A program made the translations under genes and the position numbers. This document shows, piece after piece, positions 5,385-23,066 of a stretch of DNA of 30,514 nt. The DNA comes from an uncultured archaeon (lineage in GTDB: Archaea; Asgardarchaeota; Jordiarchaeia; Jordiarchaeales; Jordiarchaeaceae). Each line of letters begins with the position of its first letter. The stretch's first letter is position 1. Below the pieces are notes generated by a model. It was not told the origin of the DNA, did no database searches, and saw only the letters and a list, made by a program, of their open reading frames with translations. Where the stretch lies: assembly GCA_964510585.1 (NCBI GenBank), contig CAZECW010000094.1, forward strand, positions 1-30,514, read 5' to 3'.

Positions 5385-5408
5385 AAATACTATAATTTTA
5401 TAGTATTT
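5385..5408. promoter_or_regulatory. Perfect palindromic operator overlapping TATA box of HTH/ABC operon
   Basis: AAATACTATAA-TT-TTATAGTATTT (11-bp arms) overlaps TTTAAATA at 5382-5389. Confidence 0.7.
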
Positions 5409-5420
5409 CACTGTAATATA

Positions 5421-5777
5421 TTGTCAACGACTCTAATATTACGGTGTATAAAATTGTGTGTTAAAATCCGCTCAGATGATAGATTGAGTAAGTTGCAAGA
5501 TCTTATGAGGGTGCTCCACTGTCCTACACGTTGGTTAATTATTGATTTCATAGGTGAGGGTGCTAAAAGCACGAAAGAAATATATGAATATCTAATAGCT
5601 AACAATGAAAAACTAACACCATCAGGACTTTATTATCATTTATCAGAATTAAAGAATGGGGGCATCATAGAGGTTGCCGAATACAAGGAAGAGGGCGGTG
5701 GGGCGCCAGAAAAAGTTTGGAGACTAAAAAAGAAGAAAATAGTAATCGATTTACTAAAATCCGAAGGAGATGAGTAA
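5421..5777 (+). CDS. Winged-helix (ArsR-like) transcriptional regulator
   Basis: LHCPTRWLIIDFI...STKEIY...SGLYYHLSELKNGGIIEV...GGGAPEKVWRL. The true start is probably downstream of 5421. Confidence 0.85.
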   Translation: MSTTLILRCIKLCVKIRSDDRLSKLQDLMRVLHCPTRWLIIDFIGEGAKSTKEIYEYLIANNEKLTPSGLYYHLSELKNGGIIEVAEYKEEGGGAPEKVWRLKKKKIVIDLLKSEGDE

Positions 5778-9239: not shown

Positions 9240-9304
9240 ACTAATTTTTCACCCGTAAAACATTATTTATTATTGGTTTTCGTACTAGGTCAAATTTTGA
9301 AAGT

Positions 9305-9324
9305 ATATCGATAAATGCAAATAT
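9305..9324. promoter_or_regulatory. Putative ArsR-type operator (copy upstream of acr3 / divergent arsR)
   Basis: ATATCG-ATAAATGC-AAATAT. Confidence 0.55.
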
Positions 9325-9512
9325 GGGGAGATTGTTGTATATTGCTAAACTAGTGCTTGAGCCGAACGCATTCAAACAAACACTCTTAATGAGAATCTTT
9401 TTATTTCTAAGCAAACACCAAGCGATTTTAATTAAGGACATTTTACGGTAGGTTTAAGTGTATTTAAGATTATCGTTTCATATTGATATTTATAGATTTA
9501 GGATGTGAATCG

Positions 9513-9893
9513 ATGGAACGTTTAGCACGCCTAATCGAGGAGGATGAGTGCTCGGCAAAGTGTGAAGAATACGCTGATGAACTAAAAAAATTAATGGTAG
9601 AGATGGATAAAACCCCGTTATGCAAGTTTGGATCTCTACTTTTTAAAGCCCTAGCGGATCGTAATCGTCTAAGAATTTTGAAGATGCTGGCTGTTAGAGA
9701 GATGTGTGTTTGCGAATTAAATGTGGCATTAGACATTTCTCAGGGAACAATATCGCACCATCTGAAAATCCTCCAAGAAGCCAAATTAATAAAGGGAAGA
9801 GTGAAAGGTAAATGGAACTATTACCGACTCAGCAGTAAACAAGTTGATAAATTCATAAAAATCAGCGAACAACTCATAAAGGAATTATACTAA
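9513..9893 (+). CDS. arsR: ArsR/SmtB-family metalloregulator
   Basis: FKALADRNRLRIL, EMCVCEL (alpha3 CxC) and SQGTISHHLKIL motifs. Extra N-terminal Cys (ECSAKC, PLC). ATG 9513 is preferred over the ORF-track start at 9483. Confidence 0.93.
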   Translation: MERLARLIEEDECSAKCEEYADELKKLMVEMDKTPLCKFGSLLFKALADRNRLRILKMLAVREMCVCELNVALDISQGTISHHLKILQEAKLIKGRVKGKWNYYRLSSKQVDKFIKISEQLIKELY

Positions 9894-11271: not shown

Positions 11272-11613
11272 TTATTTAGATAGGGATTCTATGTCCTTTG
11301 TGGTTTCTGATATTCTGCGTAGGTGTTCTAGTATCATTTCATCGATCAGTTTTAGAACGAGGAATATTCGTGGATCCTTAACCTTATACTCCACTTTTTG
11401 CCCAATTTTTTTGTGCTCTAATATGTTGCAATTTTTTAGGATTTGAATGTGTTGGGAAACTGTAGATTGAGACTTGTAAACGTGGGGTAAAATATCGCAT
11501 TGACAGCACTCACCACTCCTCAGAAGATCCAGAATCTTCAACCTGGTTTCATCAGCCAAGGCTTTGAGCAGCTCAATCCTCTTCTTATACAGAAGCTCCT
11601 CCTTCTTCTCCAA
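11272..11613 (-). CDS. arsR: ArsR/SmtB-family metalloregulator (CCxC type)
   Basis: LKALADETRLKILDLLRSGECCQCDI and SQSTVSQHIQIL. Confidence 0.92.
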   Translation of the reverse strand: MEKKEELLYKKRIELLKALADETRLKILDLLRSGECCQCDILPHVYKSQSTVSQHIQILKNCNILEHKKIGQKVEYKVKDPRIFLVLKLIDEMILEHLRRISETTKDIESLSK

Positions 11614-12844: not shown

Positions 12845-12924
12845 GGAAATTCACCCTTGTTTTTAATTTTCGTGGAGATGGATTCTCATCCCATTTATAT
12901 ATACAGAAGTTTAAATATTTAAAT

Positions 12925-12944
12925 ATATCGATAAATGGTTATAC
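12925..12944. promoter_or_regulatory. Putative ArsR-type operator (weak right arm)
   Basis: ATATCG-ATAAATGG-TTATAC adjacent to TTTAAATA repeats. Confidence 0.45.
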
Positions 12945-13310
12945 TATGATAAAACTGTGCTCCAACATTCACGAGAAACAGTAGGACTCCTTCAACAAGC
13001 AAACCAAAGAACTGCAAAACAAAGCCCGAACCAAAAACAAATTGCAGAAAAACATAAAAACAAGGGAACAGCCAAAAAGGCAAAAAGGCAAACACAGCAC
13101 CTTCTCAGCACACAACCATTTTTAAAAAGAGTTTCCCATCCAAAAATTCAAACCTCCCTATTCCAAGAATAAAGGCATTATGATCAGTGTTTTGCGTGAA
13201 TTCTTTTCTCTTTCAAAGTATGAGCTAATGATTATTCTAATATGTAAAGTGTTTATCTTAAAAAATAGCAAAAATAAAAAAATTTAAATATTATGTTTGG
13301 TAAATAAAAT

Positions 13311-13330
13311 ATATCGTTTAATGGCAATAT
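13311..13330. promoter_or_regulatory. Putative ArsR-type operator downstream of TATA of radical SAM pair
   Basis: ATATCG-TTTAATGG-CAATAT, with TTTAAATA at 13283-13290. Confidence 0.6.
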
Positions 13331-13475: not shown

Positions 13476-14930
13476 ACGGTTAGTACAATCTCCTCAATAG
13501 AGGTTTTAAAATCTACAATTGACAACAGATTTGTTCGTTTCCTGTTAAGAAGACTAACCCGTAAATGTAGGATAGACGGAAAAAGCCGCTTAAACATCGC
13601 CCTAGAACTTTTTTCAGGAGCTAGAGAAAAAGCTTGCTTTACTTGCAGCCACATAACCCTACCTATTGTTCGGTGGACTATAAACAGAGGCGGCGCAGCA
13701 TTTGGAGTTTCAGAGGAAGATTTGAAAACCAGGTTCAAAGACCCCTATTGGCGCACAGGCCTCGTGGACGTAATTAAGGGAATAGCAAAATATGGTGTAA
13801 AAAAGCCCTTCGTTCCCGGAGCGCCATTCCTCATTGTGTGGGACTACACCTACGCCTGCAACCTGAGATGCAAACACTGCTACGCCTCAGCCGGTAAGCC
13901 TCTACCCAACGAATTCAGCGCCAGGGAGGCACTCGACACTGCTGATGAGCTTGCCGACGCCGGAGTTACCGCTGTTGCATTCTCGGGAGGAGAACCCCTG
14001 ATGCGGAAAGATCTATTCGACACCATGAAGAGGCTGAGAGACAACGGAGTATTCACAGCTGTTGCAACAAACGGAACCCTCATAACTAGGGAGGTTGCTA
14101 AAAAACTTGCAGACCTCGGTGCGGGTTTTGTTCAGATAAGTCTGGATGGCGCAAGCGCCGAAACCCACGATAGTTTCCGCGGTGTGCCTGGCACCTATGA
14201 GAGAACACTCCAAGCTATTAAAAATTGTGTTGAAAACGGCCTCTTCGTTGAGATCTCAACCACAGCTACAAAAATGAATTATGAAGAAGTTCCCAAGATC
14301 GCTGATTTGTGTGAGAAGATTGGCGTCGACTGGTACATGATTTTTAACTTCGTTCCAACTGGTAGAGGATACTTCATGATAGAAAACGACCTAACACCCG
14401 AAGATAGGGAAGATCTTCTCAAGATACTGTGGAACAGGTTGAAAAGTGGTGGTAAACTACAGTATCTATCCACAGCACCTCAATTTGCCAGGGTGGCTCT
14501 ACAAGAAGAGAAAGATTCGGAAAAGAAGATTATACCGGGACACTTCTACAATCCTACGCTAATGGGGCAACTCTCTAACTTGGGTGACTTCATTGGTGGT
14601 TGTGGAGCGGGTAGAATGTATGCAGCCCTTGAGCCTGAGGGCACTCTGCAGCCTTGTGTTTTTCTACCAATTAAACTGGGAAATCTCAGGGAGGAGAGAT
14701 TCGAAGAGATATGGGACAATCATCCCATCCTTCAAACGCTTAGAAACAGGGATGAGCTGAAGGGAAGATGTAAAACCTGCGAGTACAGAGATGTCTGCGG
14801 AGGATGCAGAGCAAGAGCCTACGGATACTTTGGCGATGTCACCGCCCCAGATCCGGGATGCATATATAATAAGGATGTTTTCTACAAACTTAAGACTGAA
14901 TTCGAGGAGAAAAAGGTGATCGAGATTTAG
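13476..14930 (+). CDS. Radical SAM/SPASM protein with archaeal N-terminal extension
   Basis: CNLRCKHC, FSGGEP, QISLDG and SPASM motifs (GCGAG...QPCVF; CKTC...CGGCRARAY...DPGC). The frame is open and protein-like from about 13455. The only SD-supported start is ACG at 13476 (GGAGGT 13464-13469). The ORF-track start at 13722 truncates the conserved N-terminus. Confidence 0.88.
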   Translation, partial: TVSTISSIEVLKSTIDNRFVRFLLRRLTRKCRIDGKSRLNIALELFSGAREKACFTCSHITLPIVRWTINRGGAAFGVSEEDLKTRFKDPYWRTGLVDVIKGIAKYGVKKPFVPGAPFLIVWDYTYACNLRCKHCYASAGKPLPNEFSAREALDTADELADAGVTAVAFSGGEPLMRKDLFDTMKRLRDNGVFTAVATNGTLITREVAKKLADLGAGFVQISLDGASAETHDSFRGVPGTYERTLQAIKNCVENGLFVEISTTATKMNYEEVPKIADLCEKIGVDWYMIFNFVPTGRGYFMIENDLTPEDREDLLKILWNRLKSGGKLQYLSTAPQFARVALQEEKDSEKKIIPGHFYNPTLMGQLSNLGDFIGGCGAGRMYAALEPEGTLQPCVFLPIKLGNLREERFEEIWDNHPILQTLRNRDELKGRCKTCEYRDVCGGCRARAYGYFGDVTAPDPGCIYNKDVFYKLKTEFEEKKVIEI

Positions 14931-14943
14931 GGGATACCTCTGT

Positions 14944-16335
14944 ATGCGTGTCTTGTTTGTTTTTCCCCCCTCTGTTTCAGCCATTCTCAACATTCTTGGT
15001 ACTACCTCTCCGCCTCTCGGGCTTGCTTATCTAGCCTCTTCGCTTGAGAGGGAGGGTGTGAATGTTAAGATTCTTGACGCGCAGGCACTAAATTTGAGCT
15101 TTGAGGAAATCGAAAGAGAGATAAGAGTTTGGAAACCCGATGTTGTCGGTGCCACGGGCGCCACACCAGCCTGCTTTGATGCACTCAGGGCTTTGGAGAT
15201 AGCTAAAAATTATGGTGCTAAAACTGTGGTGGGTGGTCCTCACTTCTCGTTTACAGACGTTGAAACTCTTGATAACTATCCTTTTGTGGACTTTGTTGTG
15301 AGAGGTGAGGGTGAAGAAACAATTGTGGAGCTTATAAGGGCTCTCGAGGGAAGCGGAAAAGTTTCGGAGGTATTAGGCTTGACGTACAGGGATGGAGAAA
15401 GTGTTCGAAAGAATCAGGATAGGCCGCTCATTAAAAATATTGACAGTATTCCCTTTCCAGCGTTCCACCTTCTCCCCATGAACAAGTACACTTTCGGCAA
15501 GTACCATTACGCAACAGCTATGACAAGCCGGGGTTGCCCTTACAGATGTGTTTTTTGCGCCTCATCAAAACTATTCGGTAAAAGGTGGAGGGGCAGAAGC
15601 CCAGAGAACGTGGCAGATGAGCTGGAACAACTTACTGAAAATTACCGTGTTAGAAACATTGAGTTTCTCGACGATACATTCACCCTAGACAAGGAACGGG
15701 CGGAGAAGATTTGTGACGAAATAATTAAGAGGGGACTGGATATAGTTTGGAATTGCTCCTCTAGGGTAAACACCATCAGCCGCAGTTTACTTGAAAAAAT
15801 GAAGAGAGCTGGCTGTACCTCCATATACTACGGCGTTGAATCTGGCTCCCAAGAAATACTGGATCGCATGAAGAAGGGAATCACACTAGACCAGATAGTA
15901 AGGGCGTTTAAAATAACCAAACGGGTGGGTATGGAGATAATAGGTTCATTCATAATCGGCTTCCCGGGTGAAACAATAAACACGATTAAAAAAACTATTA
16001 GTTTCGCAAAGTTTCTAAAACCGGACTACGCCCAATTCACCATCTGCACTCCATATCCCGGAACAGAACTCTTCGAAATCATTGAAAACAGTGACAATAT
16101 GCAGCTTTTAACCAAGGACTGGAGTGAATACGATGCCTTGAAACCAGTGTTTACGATAAACGATACACTCTATCCCTCACCATTAGATCTTATAAAATGG
16201 GTGAAGAAAGCCTATTTGAATTTCTATGTTTCACTGAGCTTTCTGTTTCAGCAGCTTAAAAAGAAACGCTTCATTGTTTGGAGAAAGGTGCTAAACGCAT
16301 TTAAGAATTATATAAAAGGCAATATCAGGTTCTGA
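14944..16335 (+). CDS. Cobalamin-binding radical SAM protein (class B methyltransferase-like)
   Basis: PPLGLAYLAS, GGPH, GEGE, SRGCPYRCVFC, DDTF, YGVESGSQ, IIGFPGET and TPYPGT motifs. Confidence 0.93.
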   Translation: MRVLFVFPPSVSAILNILGTTSPPLGLAYLASSLEREGVNVKILDAQALNLSFEEIEREIRVWKPDVVGATGATPACFDALRALEIAKNYGAKTVVGGPHFSFTDVETLDNYPFVDFVVRGEGEETIVELIRALEGSGKVSEVLGLTYRDGESVRKNQDRPLIKNIDSIPFPAFHLLPMNKYTFGKYHYATAMTSRGCPYRCVFCASSKLFGKRWRGRSPENVADELEQLTENYRVRNIEFLDDTFTLDKERAEKICDEIIKRGLDIVWNCSSRVNTISRSLLEKMKRAGCTSIYYGVESGSQEILDRMKKGITLDQIVRAFKITKRVGMEIIGSFIIGFPGETINTIKKTISFAKFLKPDYAQFTICTPYPGTELFEIIENSDNMQLLTKDWSEYDALKPVFTINDTLYPSPLDLIKWVKKAYLNFYVSLSFLFQQLKKKRFIVWRKVLNAFKNYIKGNIRF

Positions 16336-16769
16336 GAGTGTAGGAAACAATATCTCAATCTTAACTTGAATCTCTTTAGGCAAGATATAAGACAGTAACA
16401 CCATAGAATTTATTTTTAGGAAGCGTTGAAGCATTCTTTGTCTTTTTTCTTATGAATGTGAATCAGGTGCTTTGCCAAAATTCTTCTCTGACAGTCTTGC
16501 GGTCTTGAGTTAAATTTTCAAGAAGGACAAGATAATCAAGGCTGATGAAACGGTTATAACTGAAAAGGAAGAAACGCTTCAATGGAGAATAAATTAGGAA
16601 AGACCTTATGAAGAGTATTTTTAATGAATCGAGGTCCTTAGCGTGAATTTTCATAGTAGAAGAAGGGGCCAGCCTATAATTTCTACAATGTGAACCTACG
16701 CCAATTTAGGGTGGTTTATATACACCAGCGCAATTTTAATCATGCATTTACATGAATTTATTTTAATCA

Positions 16770-16928
16770 TTAACAGCACCCACCACTGGAGCCACCAGAA
16801 GGTAAAATTTTTTTAAATTCATTTTTCCAGCACTCGGTACACAGCCAAATTTTTCCTAAACTGCGATGTGTACCGCAAAGCAGGCTCACGTTTTCGCCAC
16901 TTTTACCGCAGATACCACACTTGTCCAT
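16770..16928 (-). CDS. Unannotated 52-aa Cys-rich protein (CxxC...CxxH...CxxC...terminal CC)
   Basis: MDKCGICGKSGENVSLLCGTHRSLGKIWLCTECWKNEFKKILPSGGSSGGCC*. It has the SD GGTGA, a TATA at 16982-16989 and a perfect operator between them. Below the ORF-track length cutoff. Confidence 0.8.
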   Translation of the reverse strand: MDKCGICGKSGENVSLLCGTHRSLGKIWLCTECWKNEFKKILPSGGSSGGCC

Positions 16929-16948
16929 TTTTTTTCACCATCTCCAGA

Positions 16949-16989
16949 GTTATATTGCTATACGCCAATATAACGATTTATTATTTAAA
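16949..16989 (-). promoter_or_regulatory. Promoter with perfect 9-bp inverted-repeat operator
   Basis: GTTATATTG-CTATACGC-CAATATAAC (16949-16974) lies downstream of TTTAAATA and a purine-rich BRE on the minus strand. Confidence 0.75.
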
Positions 16990-17250
16990 CCTTTTTTCCA
17001 CTAACGAAAAGATTTATGTGAAGAGGTACAAGGTATTTGGAGGATTGGTTTGGGGCAATGTTTTAGTGTTTTTACAGTGAAAAACCTTGGACAAAGCGAG
17101 GTTCAAGAAGAATAGAGGGACAAATGGGCAACCATAGTAACTTTAACCCAAAACTTACAAACATATATGACCTTTTTTTAGCGTATCTATTTATTTATTA
17201 GACAGCTTCCCTTGATTGAAAACTCAAGCGGGATTAACTCCTCAACTTTA

Positions 17251-17529
17251 TTGACACTCTCCGCGACTAAAGTCGGGAGATTCTTGCTTCTGGCTCATTG
17301 GGAGCCTTAGGAAGCAATGGGTGTGCCATCACCCAGTTAACACGCCCCTTCCCTCAAGGGAACGGCGTCTATTTTGGCACCCTCATGGGGGCTGCGTCTT
17401 GTTTAGCCTCTTAAGCCCAAGCCAAACCCTTCAGCTACCAACAACTATTTATGTACCCTACTTTCAAATAAGCTTTTTTGGCGATTCATCCCCACGACTT
17501 GAAGTCGGGGGCTTTCCCGCCAAGGTTTT
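17251..17529 (-). mobile_element. Complete 279-bp IS200/IS605-derived miniature element
   Basis: On the minus strand it starts after TTTAC with a left-end hairpin (CCCCCGACTTCAAGTCGTGGG) and ends GAAGCAAGAATCTCCCGACTTTAGTCGCGGAGAGTGTCAA (right-end hairpin plus TCAA). No coding capacity. A second copy lies at 1-134. Confidence 0.88.
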
Positions 17530-17631
17530 GTAAAAGAAACATAAATAACCAAAAAACATCGGCAAGTTCTTGTAAGAACACTTGAAAAAAGTTAAATACA
17601 TGTATATGTGTATTTAATTTTGGTGGTATCA

Positions 17632-18389: not shown

Positions 18390-18961
18390 ATGAAGGCAAC
18401 CGTAATTCTGGGCTCACCGAGGAAAAACGGTAATACCTTTTTTGTTAAATAAAACCCTTAATCCACTTAGCAAAGAGCTGGATGCCGAAACATTATTCCT
18501 AGAGGACTATTATTGGGCTATGTACCTCGTGCCTTTCTTGTAAGGAAACCGGCCAATGTTCCATAAAAGATGATATGCGAACAATTTATAGAAAGCTATT
18601 TGAAGCTAATGCTATCATTCTTGCAAACCCTTCACATTTTGGCAGCGTCACAGCTCAGATGAAGACATTTATGGACAGAACATGGCCCTTGAGAAACGGA
18701 AGACTAAAAGACAAGATAGGGGGATCCATCGTCGTGGGAAGAAGATACGCCGAAAACACCCTAGTTACGCTCAACACATTTCTCCTAAGATATGGAGCAA
18801 TAATTGGACGCAGGGGAGTCCTAGGATACGCCTTTGAAAAAAGAGAGATCACCAGAGATCTAGAGGCGATCAAGACGATGCGCGAGCTTCGTGAGGGAAT
18901 GCTTGAACTCATTAAAAATTTTGACAGAAAAGGTAACGGTTTCAAAGAGTGTGAGAAGTAG
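18390..18961 (+). pseudogene. Iron-sulfur flavoprotein / NADPH-dependent FMN reductase family, frameshifted twice
   Basis: ATG 18390 gives MKATVILGSPRKNGNT. A shift at the T6 run (about 18440) and a second at about 18510 lead into IGLCTSCLSCKETGQC (CxxCxxCx5C)...DDM...ANPSHFGSVTAQMKTFMDR. Confidence 0.8.
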
Positions 18962-19095: not shown

Positions 19096-19132
19096 TTTAA
19101 ATATCAAATGATTAATCGTTAAATGCAAATAC
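19096..19132 (+). promoter_or_regulatory. TATA box plus putative ArsR-type operator of TauE gene
   Basis: TTTAAATA at 19096-19103 and TAATCG-TTAAATGC-AAATAC at 19113-19132. Confidence 0.5.
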
Positions 19133-20267: not shown

Positions 20268-20750
20268 TTATGTTACCTTTTTTGTTACTGGGGCTTTTTT
20301 ACATACGCTGTTTTTTGGGGAAACTATTTGTTTCTCGTAGAGTTCATCCACCTTTTTTGCGATTTCTTCTGCGATTTTGTACGCTAATTCGTAACCAGCC
20401 TCGCCGAGGTCTTCTCGGGATTTGGGAACCAAAGCAGGGTATTTTTTCATTATTTCCTTTACTCTAATGGTTGCTGCTACAGGGCCGCTGTAGTTTTCCA
20501 CAGCAGTTCTGGCACATTCTTCTTCGCACCCTTCAATTGTGATTGTTGGGTGGGTCTTTGCAAATTCCCTTTCTTGGTTTCTACCTTTTCTTTCTAGTCC
20601 TCCAGCCATGAATAGGGGTTGACATAGGATTACAGTTTTTTCAGGTCGTAACTTTTCAAAAGCTATTATTGCAGCAACTCGGGATAAGGTGCCTTCAACC
20701 AAGTCTTCGCCACTGCAGGCAATGAGCCCAATTTTCTGTCTTATAGGCAA
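20268..20750 (-). CDS. DGC-domain putative zinc-binding protein (type B)
   Basis: IACSGEDLVEGT, ILCQP and IEGCEEECA (Cys4). TTG 20750 follows the SD GGTGA (the ORF track starts at 20786). Confidence 0.85.
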   Translation of the reverse strand: MPIRQKIGLIACSGEDLVEGTLSRVAAIIAFEKLRPEKTVILCQPLFMAGGLERKGRNQEREFAKTHPTITIEGCEEECARTAVENYSGPVAATIRVKEIMKKYPALVPKSREDLGEAGYELAYKIAEEIAKKVDELYEKQIVSPKNSVCKKAPVTKKVT

Positions 20751-20751
20751 G

Positions 20752-21171
20752 TTAATCACCGTTTCTTTTTTCTTCAAGTAACTCATTTATTTTTTGGTAG
20801 ATTTTTTCTGCAAGTTTGCGGGATAGTTTTTTTGCATTTTCTCCTAGTGGATAAACACTTCTTTCTGGTTTCAATTCACGATTTTCTTTTAATACATCTG
20901 TTGACAGGAATTGAGCATCAATTTTTCCCACAGCTTCTGAAACATCATTATACGAACACTTTAGAGAACACCCGTCAATCACAATAACTTTGTTTGATTT
21001 TAGTTTATCAATAACTTCTTTTTTCCCCTTAACAATTAGTGGGAGACATTCTGTGTCCGCCTTGCCTTTAGCTAGTTCGTTTACCACGATGTATGCTGCT
21101 TCTCTGCCTATACTGCCATAGACTTTACCTATTCCACTGCAGGGAAGCAGGTAAACTATTTCTTTTGTCAA
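20752..21171 (-). CDS. DGC-domain putative zinc-binding protein (type A)
   Basis: LPCSGIGKVYG, ECLP and IDGCSLKCS. Confidence 0.88.
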   Translation of the reverse strand: MTKEIVYLLPCSGIGKVYGSIGREAAYIVVNELAKGKADTECLPLIVKGKKEVIDKLKSNKVIVIDGCSLKCSYNDVSEAVGKIDAQFLSTDVLKENRELKPERSVYPLGENAKKLSRKLAEKIYQKINELLEEKRNGD

Positions 21172-21173
21172 GC

Positions 21174-22055
21174 TCAGTCGCCTATGTTTTGTGCTCTGTG
21201 TTTTCGTTCTTCTTCTATTTTCTTTTTCATATACTCAAAATAGGCTGGACCGTCCATTAATAATTCTTTATCCTCTTCAAAGTTTTTCAGTTCTACTTCT
21301 ACGAACCATCCCTTCCCATAGGGATCTTGATTTAATAGTTCGGGTGATTTTTCTAGTTCCTTGTTCACCGCGACGACTTTGCCTGAAGCGGGAGTAATCA
21401 GTTGGAGGACAATTTTTATGGATTCAAAGCTTCCTATGTCGTCAAACTGTTCAAATTCCAAACCGATTTCGGGAAATTCCACAAAAATTATGTCGCTTGC
21501 CATGTTTTGGAGGAAATCAGAGATGCCCATAAGCGCCTTTTTACCCATGGGTTTTACCCAGCAATCATTTTCATTAAAATAGTAGCCAGACTTTGGAACT
21601 CTGAAACGGAACTTATCTACGGTGGTTTCAAAATATTCGATTTCTTCCAGCTCCCTAATCTCAGCAACCTCACCTTCTGATTCCTTTAAACTTTCAAGAA
21701 TTTCGGACGCTATGAATTCGGCTAATTTTTGCCCCTCCTCATCCAAAATGAGAGATTTTCCGGGGTTCAACTTGTACTTTTTAACCATGTCGGGCGTAAA
21801 AATTTTTTTACCGGGCCTTAATGATCTTTCATCAAGTAGCTTAGTTGCGCAGCGAGTCATACATCCATCAATCACAATTATATCAGATTCCTTCAAGAGT
21901 TCTTCGTATTTTTCATCTCCCGTATTCAGGAGAACGGGGCATATCAGCTCGATGTCAGGATTCTTTTCTATTAATTTCAATGCCACGTTTCTAGCAACAA
22001 CACCCAAAGACTTATCAAGCCCATTGCAGGGCAAAACACAAACCTTCTTACCCAT
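21174..22055 (-). CDS. DGC-domain / glycine-cleavage-H (lipoyl carrier) fusion protein
   Basis: N-terminal LPCNG, ICP and IDGCMTRCA. C-terminal GISDF..DIIFVEFP..GSFESIK (lipoyl Lys, codon 21414-21416)..PASGKVVAVN..PELLNQDPYGKGW. Confidence 0.9.
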   Translation of the reverse strand: MGKKVCVLPCNGLDKSLGVVARNVALKLIEKNPDIELICPVLLNTGDEKYEELLKESDIIVIDGCMTRCATKLLDERSLRPGKKIFTPDMVKKYKLNPGKSLILDEEGQKLAEFIASEILESLKESEGEVAEIRELEEIEYFETTVDKFRFRVPKSGYYFNENDCWVKPMGKKALMGISDFLQNMASDIIFVEFPEIGLEFEQFDDIGSFESIKIVLQLITPASGKVVAVNKELEKSPELLNQDPYGKGWFVEVELKNFEEDKELLMDGPAYFEYMKKKIEEERKHRAQNIGD

Positions 22056-22068
22056 GAGAAATTCACCT

Positions 22069-22371
22069 CTACTCGCTTTCCTTCCTTAATTCTTTGATTA
22101 GCTTGGTAATCTCTCTTTTGTCGGGAAATGATAGTGCGTCCACAGCGCAGGTTTTGGCGCAAGCCCTACAAAAAACTACACAGTTGTATGGGTTTTTTAC
22201 TATCAGTTTCTTTTCCTCATTTTCTCTCCGCTCGTAAACGTTGTGGGGACAAAACTTGTCGCACTCCATACAGAAATTGCACTTGCTGTAGTCGATTGTG
22301 GGGAACCAGGGAATTTTCTTTCTGGGAACGCCCATAAAGGTTTCCTGTTCCGCATCGTACTCTTTACTCAT
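22069..22371 (-). CDS. 2x[4Fe-4S] ferredoxin-like protein
   Basis: CNFCMECDKFCP and CVVFCRACAKTC, with an N-terminal FMGVPRKKIPWFPTIDY extension. Confidence 0.9.
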   Translation of the reverse strand: MSKEYDAEQETFMGVPRKKIPWFPTIDYSKCNFCMECDKFCPHNVYERRENEEKKLIVKNPYNCVVFCRACAKTCAVDALSFPDKREITKLIKELRKESE

Positions 22372-22762
22372 TCTTTTCTTCCTCCTCCTCTTTCTTTTCT
22401 TGGTATTCTTCTAGGGTTTTTTCAACTAGTTCTACAGCTTGGTCTGTTGTCATTTCTCTTATGTCGAGGGGTATGAGGTCTTTTTTTACATCTAGACCCG
22501 CTTTTTCGAAAGAGTCACGAAACAGTTTATATTGCATGTTGGGAGCGCAACCCGCTATGAGGTATTTTCGTCCGGGACGCAGAAAATCTTCAAGGAAGCG
22601 GTCACCATCTTCTTCGCAAAGCTGTGGATGAATAAACGCATATTCTACGGGTAGTTCTACACGTACCCGGTTAATAAAGTCCCAAATATCCATTTTTGCA
22701 AATCCTGGACATTTACCGGTGCATACGCACATTATAACGCCGATGTCTTTTTCTTCACTCAT
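22364..22762 (-). CDS. Stand-alone HdrA N-terminal-domain-like protein
   Basis: IGVIMCVC, QLCEEDG, IAGCAPNM..LFR and DIRE mirror the HdrA N-terminus (IGVYxCHC, MCSDPG, VAACSP..FR, NIRE). ATG 22762 is preferred; the ORF-track extension runs through the promoter. Confidence 0.7.
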   Translation of the reverse strand: MSEEKDIGVIMCVCTGKCPGFAKMDIWDFINRVRVELPVEYAFIHPQLCEEDGDRFLEDFLRPGRKYLIAGCAPNMQYKLFRDSFEKAGLDVKKDLIPLDIREMTTDQAVELVEKTLEEYQEKKEEEEEKNE

Positions 22763-22880
22763 TTCAAATTTCCACCTTTTTTGCAATGCTTGCCAAAAAT
22801 TTTTCCGAATGAATCTGCCTCTATAATTCTGGAATAAATTTTTTATGAACATAAGGACGAGGGAGTAGATAAATATAAAT

Positions 22881-22900
22881 ATATCGATTAATGGCAATAT
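22881..22900. promoter_or_regulatory. Putative ArsR-type operator
   Basis: ATATCG-ATTAATGG-CAATAT in the divergent intergenic region. Confidence 0.65.
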
Positions 22901-23066
22901 TATAATAAAAGATGTGTAGGTGTCCAAATATTTTCAAAATCCCGACATTAAAGCATTTTTTATTCAAAGATGCTACCAAAAATATCGTTTATAGATAGCA
23001 ATTATAACATTTGTTCTTTTTTGTAGAAAGAGGAAGCGGAATTAATTCAGGCCTAGTAATATTGAT

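Follow-up and report, generated by a model that had tools for sequence, protein, structure and literature searches.

Locus and gene

The DNA analysed here, referred to throughout as the window, is a 30,514-nt stretch of contig CAZECW010000094.1 (GenBank assembly GCA_964510585.1; 3.78 Mb in 217 contigs), and its host is a hot-spring Jordarchaeia (Asgard) archaeon represented by a metagenome-assembled genome (MAG); the sequencing runs that hold the stretch are hot-spring metagenomes. Among the runs listed as holding it none is registered as RNA, and two that bear a metatranscriptomic label are flagged as probably DNA and contain contigs of a related strain. The window carries an island of genes encoding Acr3, two Cys-motif ArsRs (genes at 9483-9893 and 11272-11613), six DGC proteins, a DGC-GcvH fusion, a ferredoxin, a protein resembling the N-terminal part of HdrA (HdrA-N-like), TauE, lipoate ligases and DsrE/F/H, while no Rfam families and no tRNAs were found in it. 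Within it lies an open reading frame (ORF) for a Cys-rich microprotein of 52 amino acids, which is the subject of this work (Table 1). A sequence-only reading of the window had quoted this ORF with two CxxC motifs, a Gly/Ser linker and a terminal CC, and exactly that sequence is encoded there. The protein begins with MDKCGICGK, has no hydrophobic N-terminal segment, contains the linker PSGGSSGG and ends in GGCC directly before the stop codon. We divide it into a predicted zinc ribbon (residues 1-41, with C4, C7, C30 and C33), a Gly/Ser arm (residues 42-50) and the terminal Cys-Cys pair (residues 51-52). The seven Cys counted in the sequence-only reading (C4, C7, C18, C30, C33, C51 and C52) hold for this copy, but C18 is a Tyr in a paralog, in a related genome and in a homolog from Odinarchaeota (all introduced below), and the conserved set consists of the four zinc-ribbon Cys and the terminal pair, with C18 outside it.

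Copies of the microprotein that are 100% and 96% identical are present in two congeneric Jordarchaeia genomes, and related Jordarchaeia genomes labelled G003 and G004 were used in the comparisons below, with G000 denoting the source genome. The paralog lies in the source genome itself (contig C26), is 88% identical and ends in GGCSCT. Relative to this paralog the gene differs by 22 synonymous and six non-synonymous codon changes (ratio of non-synonymous to synonymous substitution rates, dN/dS, 0.018), relative to G004 (where C18 is also Tyr) by 13 and two (dN/dS 0.026), and relative to G003 by eight and none (dN/dS 0). Because these changes are overwhelmingly synonymous, we conclude that the 52-aa ORF is a real gene under strong purifying selection. 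In a further strain of about 93% identity, found as contigs in the hot-spring runs X9/X13, nine of the 11 coding differences fall at third codon positions. The contigs of this strain match positions 16761-17005 only, with different letters on either side, and we therefore regard the gene with its proximal promoter as the conserved unit; the alignment of the window with G003 and G004 likewise loses its match upstream of the purine run that precedes the TATA box. A 98%-identical relative has been called as a 65-aa protein. No site resembling an intrinsic terminator was seen after the gene.

Two ideas about the tail were considered and set aside. Selenocysteine read-through was rejected, given that the window gene ends CC-TAA-TGA and the paralog CSCT-TGA, each followed by non-conserved sequence, and that no CU variant was seen. 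C-terminal lipidation, as on Rab-like CC/CxC motifs, was likewise set aside, no supporting enzyme context having been seen.

Table 1. Features of the microprotein gene, its promoter region and related elements of the window (roles of promoter elements and operators are predicted)
Feature	Position	Strand	Remarks
Coding sequence, 52-aa microprotein	16770..16928	-	ORF 16928..16773, stop TAA 16772-16770
Conserved unit, gene plus proximal promoter	16761..17005	.	flanks replaced in related strains
Shine-Dalgarno-like GGAGATGGTGA	16935..16945	-	conserved in G003 and G004
Perfect palindrome GTTATATTG-N8-CAATATAAC	16949..16974	.	candidate repressor operator, between TATA box and ribosome site
TATA box TTTAAATA	16982..16989	-	~54-61 nt before ATG; invariant in G003 and G004; putative role
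Purine-rich, resembling a B recognition element (BRE), AAAAAAGG	16990..16997	-	directly upstream of TATA box; conserved in G003 and G004; putative
Palindrome AAATACTATAA-NN-TTATAGTATTT, 11-bp arms	5385-5408		13 nt before TTG start of HTH_20 regulator gene at 5421
Palindrome, 9-bp arms	17592-17617		overlaps vapB start
ArsR, 136 aa, CVC metal(loid) site	9483..9893	+	Pfam HTH_5; candidate regulator
Cassette HdrA-N-like, ferredoxin, DGC-GcvH, DGC, DGC	20268..22927	-	Pfam

An uncharacterised family of archaeal microproteins

A word-based search for the microprotein returned a single near-identical relative only. A four-sequence profile run against 1.84 billion representative proteins retrieved 45 matches at E ≤ 1e-3, six of them at E ≤ 1e-10. 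Homologs with conserved Cys spacing, which the sequence-only reading had proposed to seek together with their context, do exist: in an alignment of 42 members C30 and C33 are invariant, C4, C7, H21, G25 and W34 are at least 90% conserved, and 35 of the 42 carry at least two Cys in their last 12 residues, behind a Gly/Ser-rich linker. Members are 50-75 aa long. Their C-terminal endings include GGCC, GGCCG (in several members), GCSC, GCAC, GCNC, CPTCG and longer multi-Cys forms, so that the spacing of the tail Cys varies across the family among CC, CxC, CxxC and multi-Cys arrangements.

The family spans two archaeal groups. A full-length homolog, 50% identical, is encoded in an Odinarchaeota MAG, and among 400 Asgard genomes strong matches were obtained in three of six genomes of the host's own Jordarchaeia genus (the source genome included), in all three genomes of another Asgard family (f26) and in one of four genomes of an Odin genus. 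In Thermoproteota the gene is present in 46 of 401 genomes. Members from this side include Pyrobaculum arsenaticum (Pars_1774), P. oguniense (Pogu_0358), P. aerophilum, P. ferrireducens, Thermoproteus tenax (named "Zn finger protein"), Thermofilum pendens and T. adornatum (named "DUF4428 domain-containing" in UniRef); the Pyrobaculum orthologs are annotated as "hypothetical protein".

AlphaFold2, supplied with the family alignment, yields a model of mean pLDDT (predicted local distance difference test score) 79.6, with a predicted beta-hairpin at residues 16-30, a helix at residues 31-41 and a tail of pLDDT below 50. Searches of the window protein against Pfam and NCBIfam gave no match (for NCBIfam, zero families at E ≤ 0.01). 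Among the 42 members, sub-threshold matches to DUF4428 (PF14471) were found in 13, with a best E of 3.2e-4 and none for the window protein, and matches to the ClpX zinc finger (PF06689) in five, all at E ≥ 0.015; the uS14 zinc finger is also among the weak sub-threshold similarities of the family. A PDB sequence search and Foldseek produced nothing significant for the microprotein, the top Foldseek rows including the zinc-binding domain (ZBD) of ClpX, 2ds6, at E 0.9 and template-modelling scores of 0.46/0.54. Clusters of the AlphaFold database (AFDB) contained unnamed family members only, and a feature search of the ESM atlas returned unnamed clusters only. Many orthologs bear the name RpoP/RPC12, which is an automatic label of IMG only; no RpoP model appears among the Pfam hits of the 42 members even at E ≤ 10, and by this measure we take the label to be a mislabel. 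A literature search on loci of the family (Pars_1774 and others) found no paper mentioning them in the library consulted. We would thus describe this as an uncharacterised archaeal microprotein family, previously undescribed and without a curated model.

Promoter and palindrome

The sequence-only reading had also assigned the gene its own BRE, TATA box and Shine-Dalgarno sequence, and each of these can be read upstream of the ATG: the TATA box, the purine run before it, and a GGTGA within the Shine-Dalgarno-like sequence at 16939-16935 on the minus strand, 7 nt before the ATG, with a run of seven A nearest the ATG. The putative role of the TATA box rests on the archaeal promoter consensus. The perfect inverted repeat with 9-bp arms is likewise present as described, its arms lying at 16949-16957 and 16966-16974 around an 8-nt spacer (9-8-9). 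The TATA box lies 7 nt upstream of this palindrome, and the usual archaeal spacing from TATA box to start would put the transcription start inside the palindrome, where repressors classically bind.

Composition-matched shuffles give a mean of about 3.6 hits for perfect 9-bp inverted repeats with spacers of at most 20 nt, and the window has them at three places, each directly preceding a gene start, so the palindrome on its own is not beyond chance. Nevertheless, we consider it credible because of where it lies, because relatives retain it (G004 and the ~93%-identical strain have both arms unchanged, and G003 has one arm mismatch) and because no second perfect copy exists in the 3.78-Mb genome. 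The earlier description of it as the strongest operator in the window does not stand, since the palindrome before the HTH_20 regulator gene has longer arms and is the stronger of the two. A genome scan allowing at most two mismatches for further members of a regulon returned the gene's own site only, plus one unrelated site with a 6-nt spacer; the window contains 47 half-site matches where 43.5 are expected, which is no enrichment. The paralog's promoter does not have the palindrome. Folded as an RNA hairpin, it reaches -9 kcal/mol at 37 °C (z -2.4), and such a hairpin would probably be only weakly stable at the temperatures at which a hot-spring organism presumably lives. As judged from the DNA, the palindrome is a candidate operator that a repressor may bind. 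An independent subgroup of the family, linked to PadR genes, has its own perfect palindrome with 11-bp arms, CCATATATAGA-acc-TCTATATATGG, at the same position between TATA box and ATG, and for this reason a regulated private promoter looks like a habit of the family.

Gene neighbourhoods of homologs

We compared 52 loci with at most 6 kb of flank per side and clustered all ORFs lying no more than 5 kb from the peptide gene. An ArsP_1 permease is the commonest neighbour (12 loci, at a median of 51 nt from the peptide gene), followed by PadR (nine loci, median 53 nt), ArsR (eight loci), a nitroreductase (six loci) and, at six loci, a ferredoxin together with a 124-aa protein resembling the HdrA N terminus (unk124). 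Thioredoxin_3 and DGC proteins are also found among the neighbours. At one locus each, the context includes an LMWP/ArsC-type phosphatase, or CooT with a CooC-like ATPase (Ni chaperones), and such contexts again have to do with metal(loid)s.

The peptide gene is paired with ArsP_1 in six different gene orders: ArsP_1, ArsD-like, peptide, PadR (Odinarchaeota); PadR, peptide, ArsP_1; unk115, peptide, ArsR, ArsP_1, with 1-nt junctions; HdrA-N-like, Fer4, peptide, ArsP_1, with an ArsR divergent from them; ArsP_1, Trx_3, DGC, DUF169, DGC, peptide; and the peptide convergent with ArsP_1 and Trx_3. Linkage that is retained while the order is shuffled is the usual signature of functional coupling. Ten of the 46 peptide-bearing Thermoproteota genomes have ArsP_1, and in nine of these ten the two genes lie less than 500 nt apart. 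The permeases adjoining the peptide gene have an invariant CSC (Cys-Ser-Cys) and obtain their best scores, below the cut-off, against the models for SaoE and the SO_0444 Cu/Zn efflux permease, and most of the adjoining ArsRs carry a CVC or CAC metal(loid) site. Three small co-operonic proteins, to all appearance unrelated to one another, contain Gly-flanked CC motifs, namely SGGCCGPGG (L032 9076-9471), GGGSCCGP (L040 178-525) and GGGDCCCGP (L077 1834-2205); they have no match in Pfam, NCBIfam or PDB except for a weak Thioredoxin_3 match of the L032 protein, which is ArsD-like in its layout and is the Odinarchaeota protein co-operonic with a peptide homolog. The Thermoproteota subgroup with the order PadR, peptide, ArsP_1 (L116, L117, L119, L120, L123 and L134) has an N-terminal extension of about 20 residues with a second vicinal pair, SCCD. 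Overall, the family is strongly associated with genes for the export and sensing of thiophilic metal(loid)s.

A different context is found in Asgard family f26 (three genera; L071, L072 6140-6331 and L073), where the peptide gene lies between SelD and Sel_Asgard-SepSecS-aSelB, within the cluster of genes for the selenocysteine machinery, and the family member has a longer tail, CGPC-x5-CxSC. A paper on the Asgard selenoproteome mentions an associated hypothetical protein, which is presumably Sel_Asgard, and does not mention this microprotein (PMC11227280). The source genome has a selenocysteine cluster of its own (contig C146 13348-18446: SelB / SepSecS / Sel_Asgard-like / SelD), and the 680-nt gap between its last two genes holds no family member and no tRNA detectable by ARAGORN.

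Surroundings of the gene in the window

The ArsR gene listed in Table 1 is a candidate regulator because its product is the closest relative in the window of the ArsRs that stand beside family members elsewhere, with 55% core identity to the L040 ArsR, whose gene comes directly after the peptide gene, and 43% identity over 115 aa to the divergent ArsR of L130. The paralog of the microprotein gene on contig C26 faces an ArsR-family gene. At the head of the cassette in Table 1, the HdrA-N-like ORF (22364-22927) is 57% identical to the 124-aa head protein of the operons with the order unk124, Fer4, peptide (L045, L122 and L125). The window thereby holds the same parts as those operons, with a VapBC pair, a high-copy repeat and a truncated flavodoxin-like gene in between.

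This repeat is about 287 nt long, lies at 17250-17535 (and at 1-140), and is present in the genome as 32 near-full-length copies and about 126 high-scoring segment pairs at E ≤ 1e-20, with 93-97% identity. Many contigs end within it, and the source runs show a more than 100-fold increase in word depth there. It has CGACT-nnn-AGTCG hairpins near both ends and no Rfam match, and it looks like a mobile element of the miniature inverted-repeat transposable element (MITE) type. The spacer that separates vapB from the microprotein promoter is long and not conserved, which this repeat explains. An FMN_red/WrbA-like ORF (18575-18961) beside the VapBC pair matches only profile positions 62-139; it is therefore truncated at its N terminus and is probably a gene remnant.

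A 14-nt motif, TATATCG[AT]T[AT]AATG, occurs perfectly at 9304-9317, 12924-12937, 13310-13323 and 22880-22893, and with two mismatches at 19112-19125. These five sites compare with 1.0 expected, and none of 100 shuffles reached five. Sites lie in the Acr3/ArsR intergenic region, upstream of a radical SAM pair and of TauE, and where the HdrA-N-like/Fer4/DGC cassette begins, and the motif is a candidate shared operator of the island, distinct from the microprotein palindrome. The site at 13310 directly precedes CAATATAAC, the half-site of that palindrome. An A/C-rich low-complexity tract of about 180 nt (12960-13140) lies in the long intergenic stretch upstream of the radical SAM pair.

Proposed function

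We propose, with moderate confidence, that the microprotein is a dithiol arm anchored on a zinc ribbon, acting in the cytoplasm to carry or buffer thiophilic metal(loid)s. Residues 1-41 would fold as a small treble-clef or zinc-ribbon domain in which C4, C7, C30 and C33 hold a structural Zn, and this domain would provide a stable handle and probably a docking surface. The Gly/Ser arm of about 10 residues would present the terminal Cys-Cys dithiol, which is expected to chelate soft species; As(III)/Sb(III) would be the most likely cargo in this arsenic-island context, with Hg, Cd, Cu(I) or Se possible in other lineages. Arsenic is thus plausible as cargo for this island, and Ni is also possible in other lineages. 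The arm may hand its cargo by ligand exchange to other Cys-motif proteins, the candidate recipients being CSC-motif ArsP-type permeases where present, CVC-type ArsR sensors, and thioredoxin-like, ArsD-like and DGC proteins. Transcription would begin from the gene's own TATA promoter, and a dimeric repressor on the 9-8-9 palindrome over the start site would probably block it.

The sequence-only reading had arrived at a metalloid scavenger or shuttle anchored on a zinc finger. Its general outline gains support, in that homologs keep the Cys spacing and the tail and adjoin ArsP-type permeases and CVC-type ArsRs, but nothing in these contexts is specific to arsenic: the permeases score best against Cu/Zn and SaoE models, and individual lineages link the family to selenium, to Ni chaperones and to gamma-glutamyltransferase. 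Several further observations weigh against the proposed carrier role. ArsP_1 is missing from 36 of the 46 peptide-bearing Thermoproteota genomes, and its co-occurrence with the peptide at the level of genomes is flat (10/46, or 22%, against 66/355, or 19%). Neither an ArsP_1 nor an ArsD-like gene is detectable by tblastn in the source genome, which in this respect resembles Pyrobaculum, Thermoproteus and Thermofilum, all of them with the peptide but no detectable ArsP_1. A gamma-glutamyltransferase gene, which is no metal gene, is the conserved neighbour in Pyrobaculum, where the peptide gene follows it with a TATA box of its own. The gene is isolated in the window, with 3.3 kb between it and the DGC cassette and about 7 kb between it and the ArsR and Acr3 genes, and its flanks are occupied by the toxin-antitoxin pair and the high-copy repeat. 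Due to the absence of ArsP_1 from those 36 genomes and the flat co-occurrence, the permease is best described as a frequent client and not an obligatory partner.

Alternative explanations

The tail could instead work in redox chemistry, its terminal dithiol/disulfide forming an electron-carrying swinging arm, similar to the GCUG/SCCS arm of thioredoxin reductase or the two-Cys arm of DsrC. Such an arm would reduce oxyanions or the disulfides of partners, and the thioredoxin-like, HdrA-N-like and ferredoxin proteins encoded with it would regenerate it. We judge this unlikely while taking it seriously, given the members that end in GGCCG, the recurrent operons of HdrA-N-like, ferredoxin and peptide genes, the Thioredoxin_3 and nitroreductase neighbours, and the DsrE/F/H genes and lipoyl-carrier cassette of the window. 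However, the spacing of the tail Cys varies freely, and chelation therefore fits better than a defined redox couple; moreover, the accompanying regulators are of metal-sensor types with CVC sites, and no neighbour is commoner than an efflux permease.

The regulators themselves suggest another, mainly regulatory role, in which the microprotein would deliver a metal(loid) to, or bind, the adjoining PadR or ArsR and so lift repression, by a logic like that of CopZ and CopY. A PadR or ArsR gene adjoins at 17 of the 52 loci, including the orders PadR-peptide-permease and peptide-ArsR-permease with their 1-nt junctions, and the PadR proteins have no obvious metal sites of their own. We nonetheless find such an adaptor role quite improbable, since many members (those of Pyrobaculum, of Asgard family f26 and of the window itself) have no nearby regulator, and ArsRs of the CVC type are able to sense metal(loid)s alone.

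There is a slender chance that the protein is a generic small zinc finger that binds nucleic acid or protein, as the "RpoP/RPC12" label of IMG implies, with an incidental Cys tail. Many archaeal zinc-finger microproteins with unknown roles exist, and the weak sub-threshold similarities to DUF4428, the ClpX ZBD and uS14 point the same way, but the tail is kept across phyla (35/42) and is under purifying selection, the RpoP model finds no match and the neighbourhood is non-random. That the microprotein is the precursor of a natural product or cofactor, with the zinc ribbon as leader and the Cys tail as core, matured by the radical SAM/SPASM and B12-radical SAM enzymes encoded at 13722-16335, is very improbable: these two genes are convergent with it at 434 nt and are kept nearby in G003 and G004, and a conserved N-terminal part before a variable Cys-rich C terminus does resemble a leader and core, but about 4.5 kb of other genes intervene in G004, the radical SAM pair is near only in this genus, a SPASM gene occurs within 5 kb at just five of the 52 loci (1.8-4.8 kb off and never adjacent), no protease or exporter set recurs across the 52 loci, the SPASM protein scores best, below the cut-off, with the heme-pathway models AhbD/NirJ, and a folded zinc domain would be unusual as a leader.

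Comparison with known systems

The closest parallel to a metal(loid)-carrying arm is a bacterial one. SaoC, a CysCys-COOH protein of the CD2366 family, is encoded in the SAO locus together with the ArsP-family CSC permease SaoE, the thioredoxin-like SaoT and the DsrE-like SaoD; it was "dark matter" without a model before the paper that described it, where contact with a heavy metal was proposed on bioinformatic grounds (Haft & Gwadz 2022, bioRxiv 10.1101/2022.07.06.499078). The window protein shares the terminal Cys-Cys-COOH, and an ArsP-type CSC permease stands beside family members (at 12/52 loci, and in 9/10 genomes with both genes), though not in the window. In contrast, SaoC is a bacterial protein of about 158 aa with a signal or lipoprotein peptide, whereas the archaeal family is 50-75 aa long, predicted to be cytoplasmic and built on a zinc ribbon; as the window protein gives no NCBIfam match, the likeness is one of analogy and not of homology.

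ArsD of the R773 type binds As(III)/Sb(III) through vicinal Cys, among them a CC in a Gly-rich C-terminal region, and passes them to an efflux system. The microprotein likewise has vicinal Cys, and the operon of the Odinarchaeota homolog also encodes an ArsD-like CC protein, but ArsD is a protein of about 120 aa with a thioredoxin fold that works for the ArsA ATPase, whereas the window protein is modelled as a zinc ribbon and has no Pfam ArsD match. MerA and thioredoxin reductase have flexible C-terminal arms with adjacent Cys or Cys-Sec (GCUG/SCCS) that act in shuttling. These arms resemble the one proposed here in flexibility, in their adjacent Cys and, for the family members so ending, in the GGCCG terminus; they are parts of large enzymes, whereas here a zinc domain of 40 residues carries the arm and provides no catalytic partner in cis. 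The DUF466 proteins YbdD/YjiX are small, end in Arg-Cys-Cys-COOH (Lys-Cys-Sec-COOH in Campylobacter) and are encoded beside transporters, but they are bacterial, unrelated in sequence and found beside pyruvate/peptide transporters of the CstA type, and the window protein has no Pfam match to them. For the putative zinc domain, DUF4428 and the ClpX ZBD (treble-clef C4) offer the same layout of knuckle, hairpin and helix and the spacing CxxCGK...C.EC, without the Gly/Ser arm and the terminal Cys pair, and the family's matches to them lie below the curated cut-offs. By analogy, the window protein at most works like SaoC, ArsD, the arms of MerA and thioredoxin reductase, or DUF466, and it is a member of none of them.

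We would tentatively go one step further, to a broader picture that is possible at best: the family may be an archaeal, convergently evolved counterpart of the bacterial CysCys-COOH proteins, a "dithiol fishing-rod" that would serve CSC-motif permeases of the ArsP/SO_0444 type and sensors with thiophilic (organo)metal(loid)s, and that in one Asgard family would have been recruited to feed selenium to SelD and the selenocysteine pathway.

Significance

Small proteins that fall below annotation cut-offs are rarely assigned roles, and this family, which reaches from cultured hyperthermophiles to Asgard archaea, offers a design that can be tested. If its arm does carry As, Sb, Hg, Cd or Se, the family would be a metallochaperone-type group of archaeal proteins without a curated model, and it would supply a soluble substrate-handling component for the poorly understood archaeal modules of ArsP_1, thioredoxin-like, DGC and HdrA-N-like proteins. 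It would also be a tractable parallel to the bacterial SaoC proposal, and its minimal scaffold of zinc ribbon and arm would be suited to metal(loid) capture at high temperature. Finally, the placement of the gene in the selenium cluster of Asgard family f26 suggests a candidate for how selenide reaches SelD in archaea.

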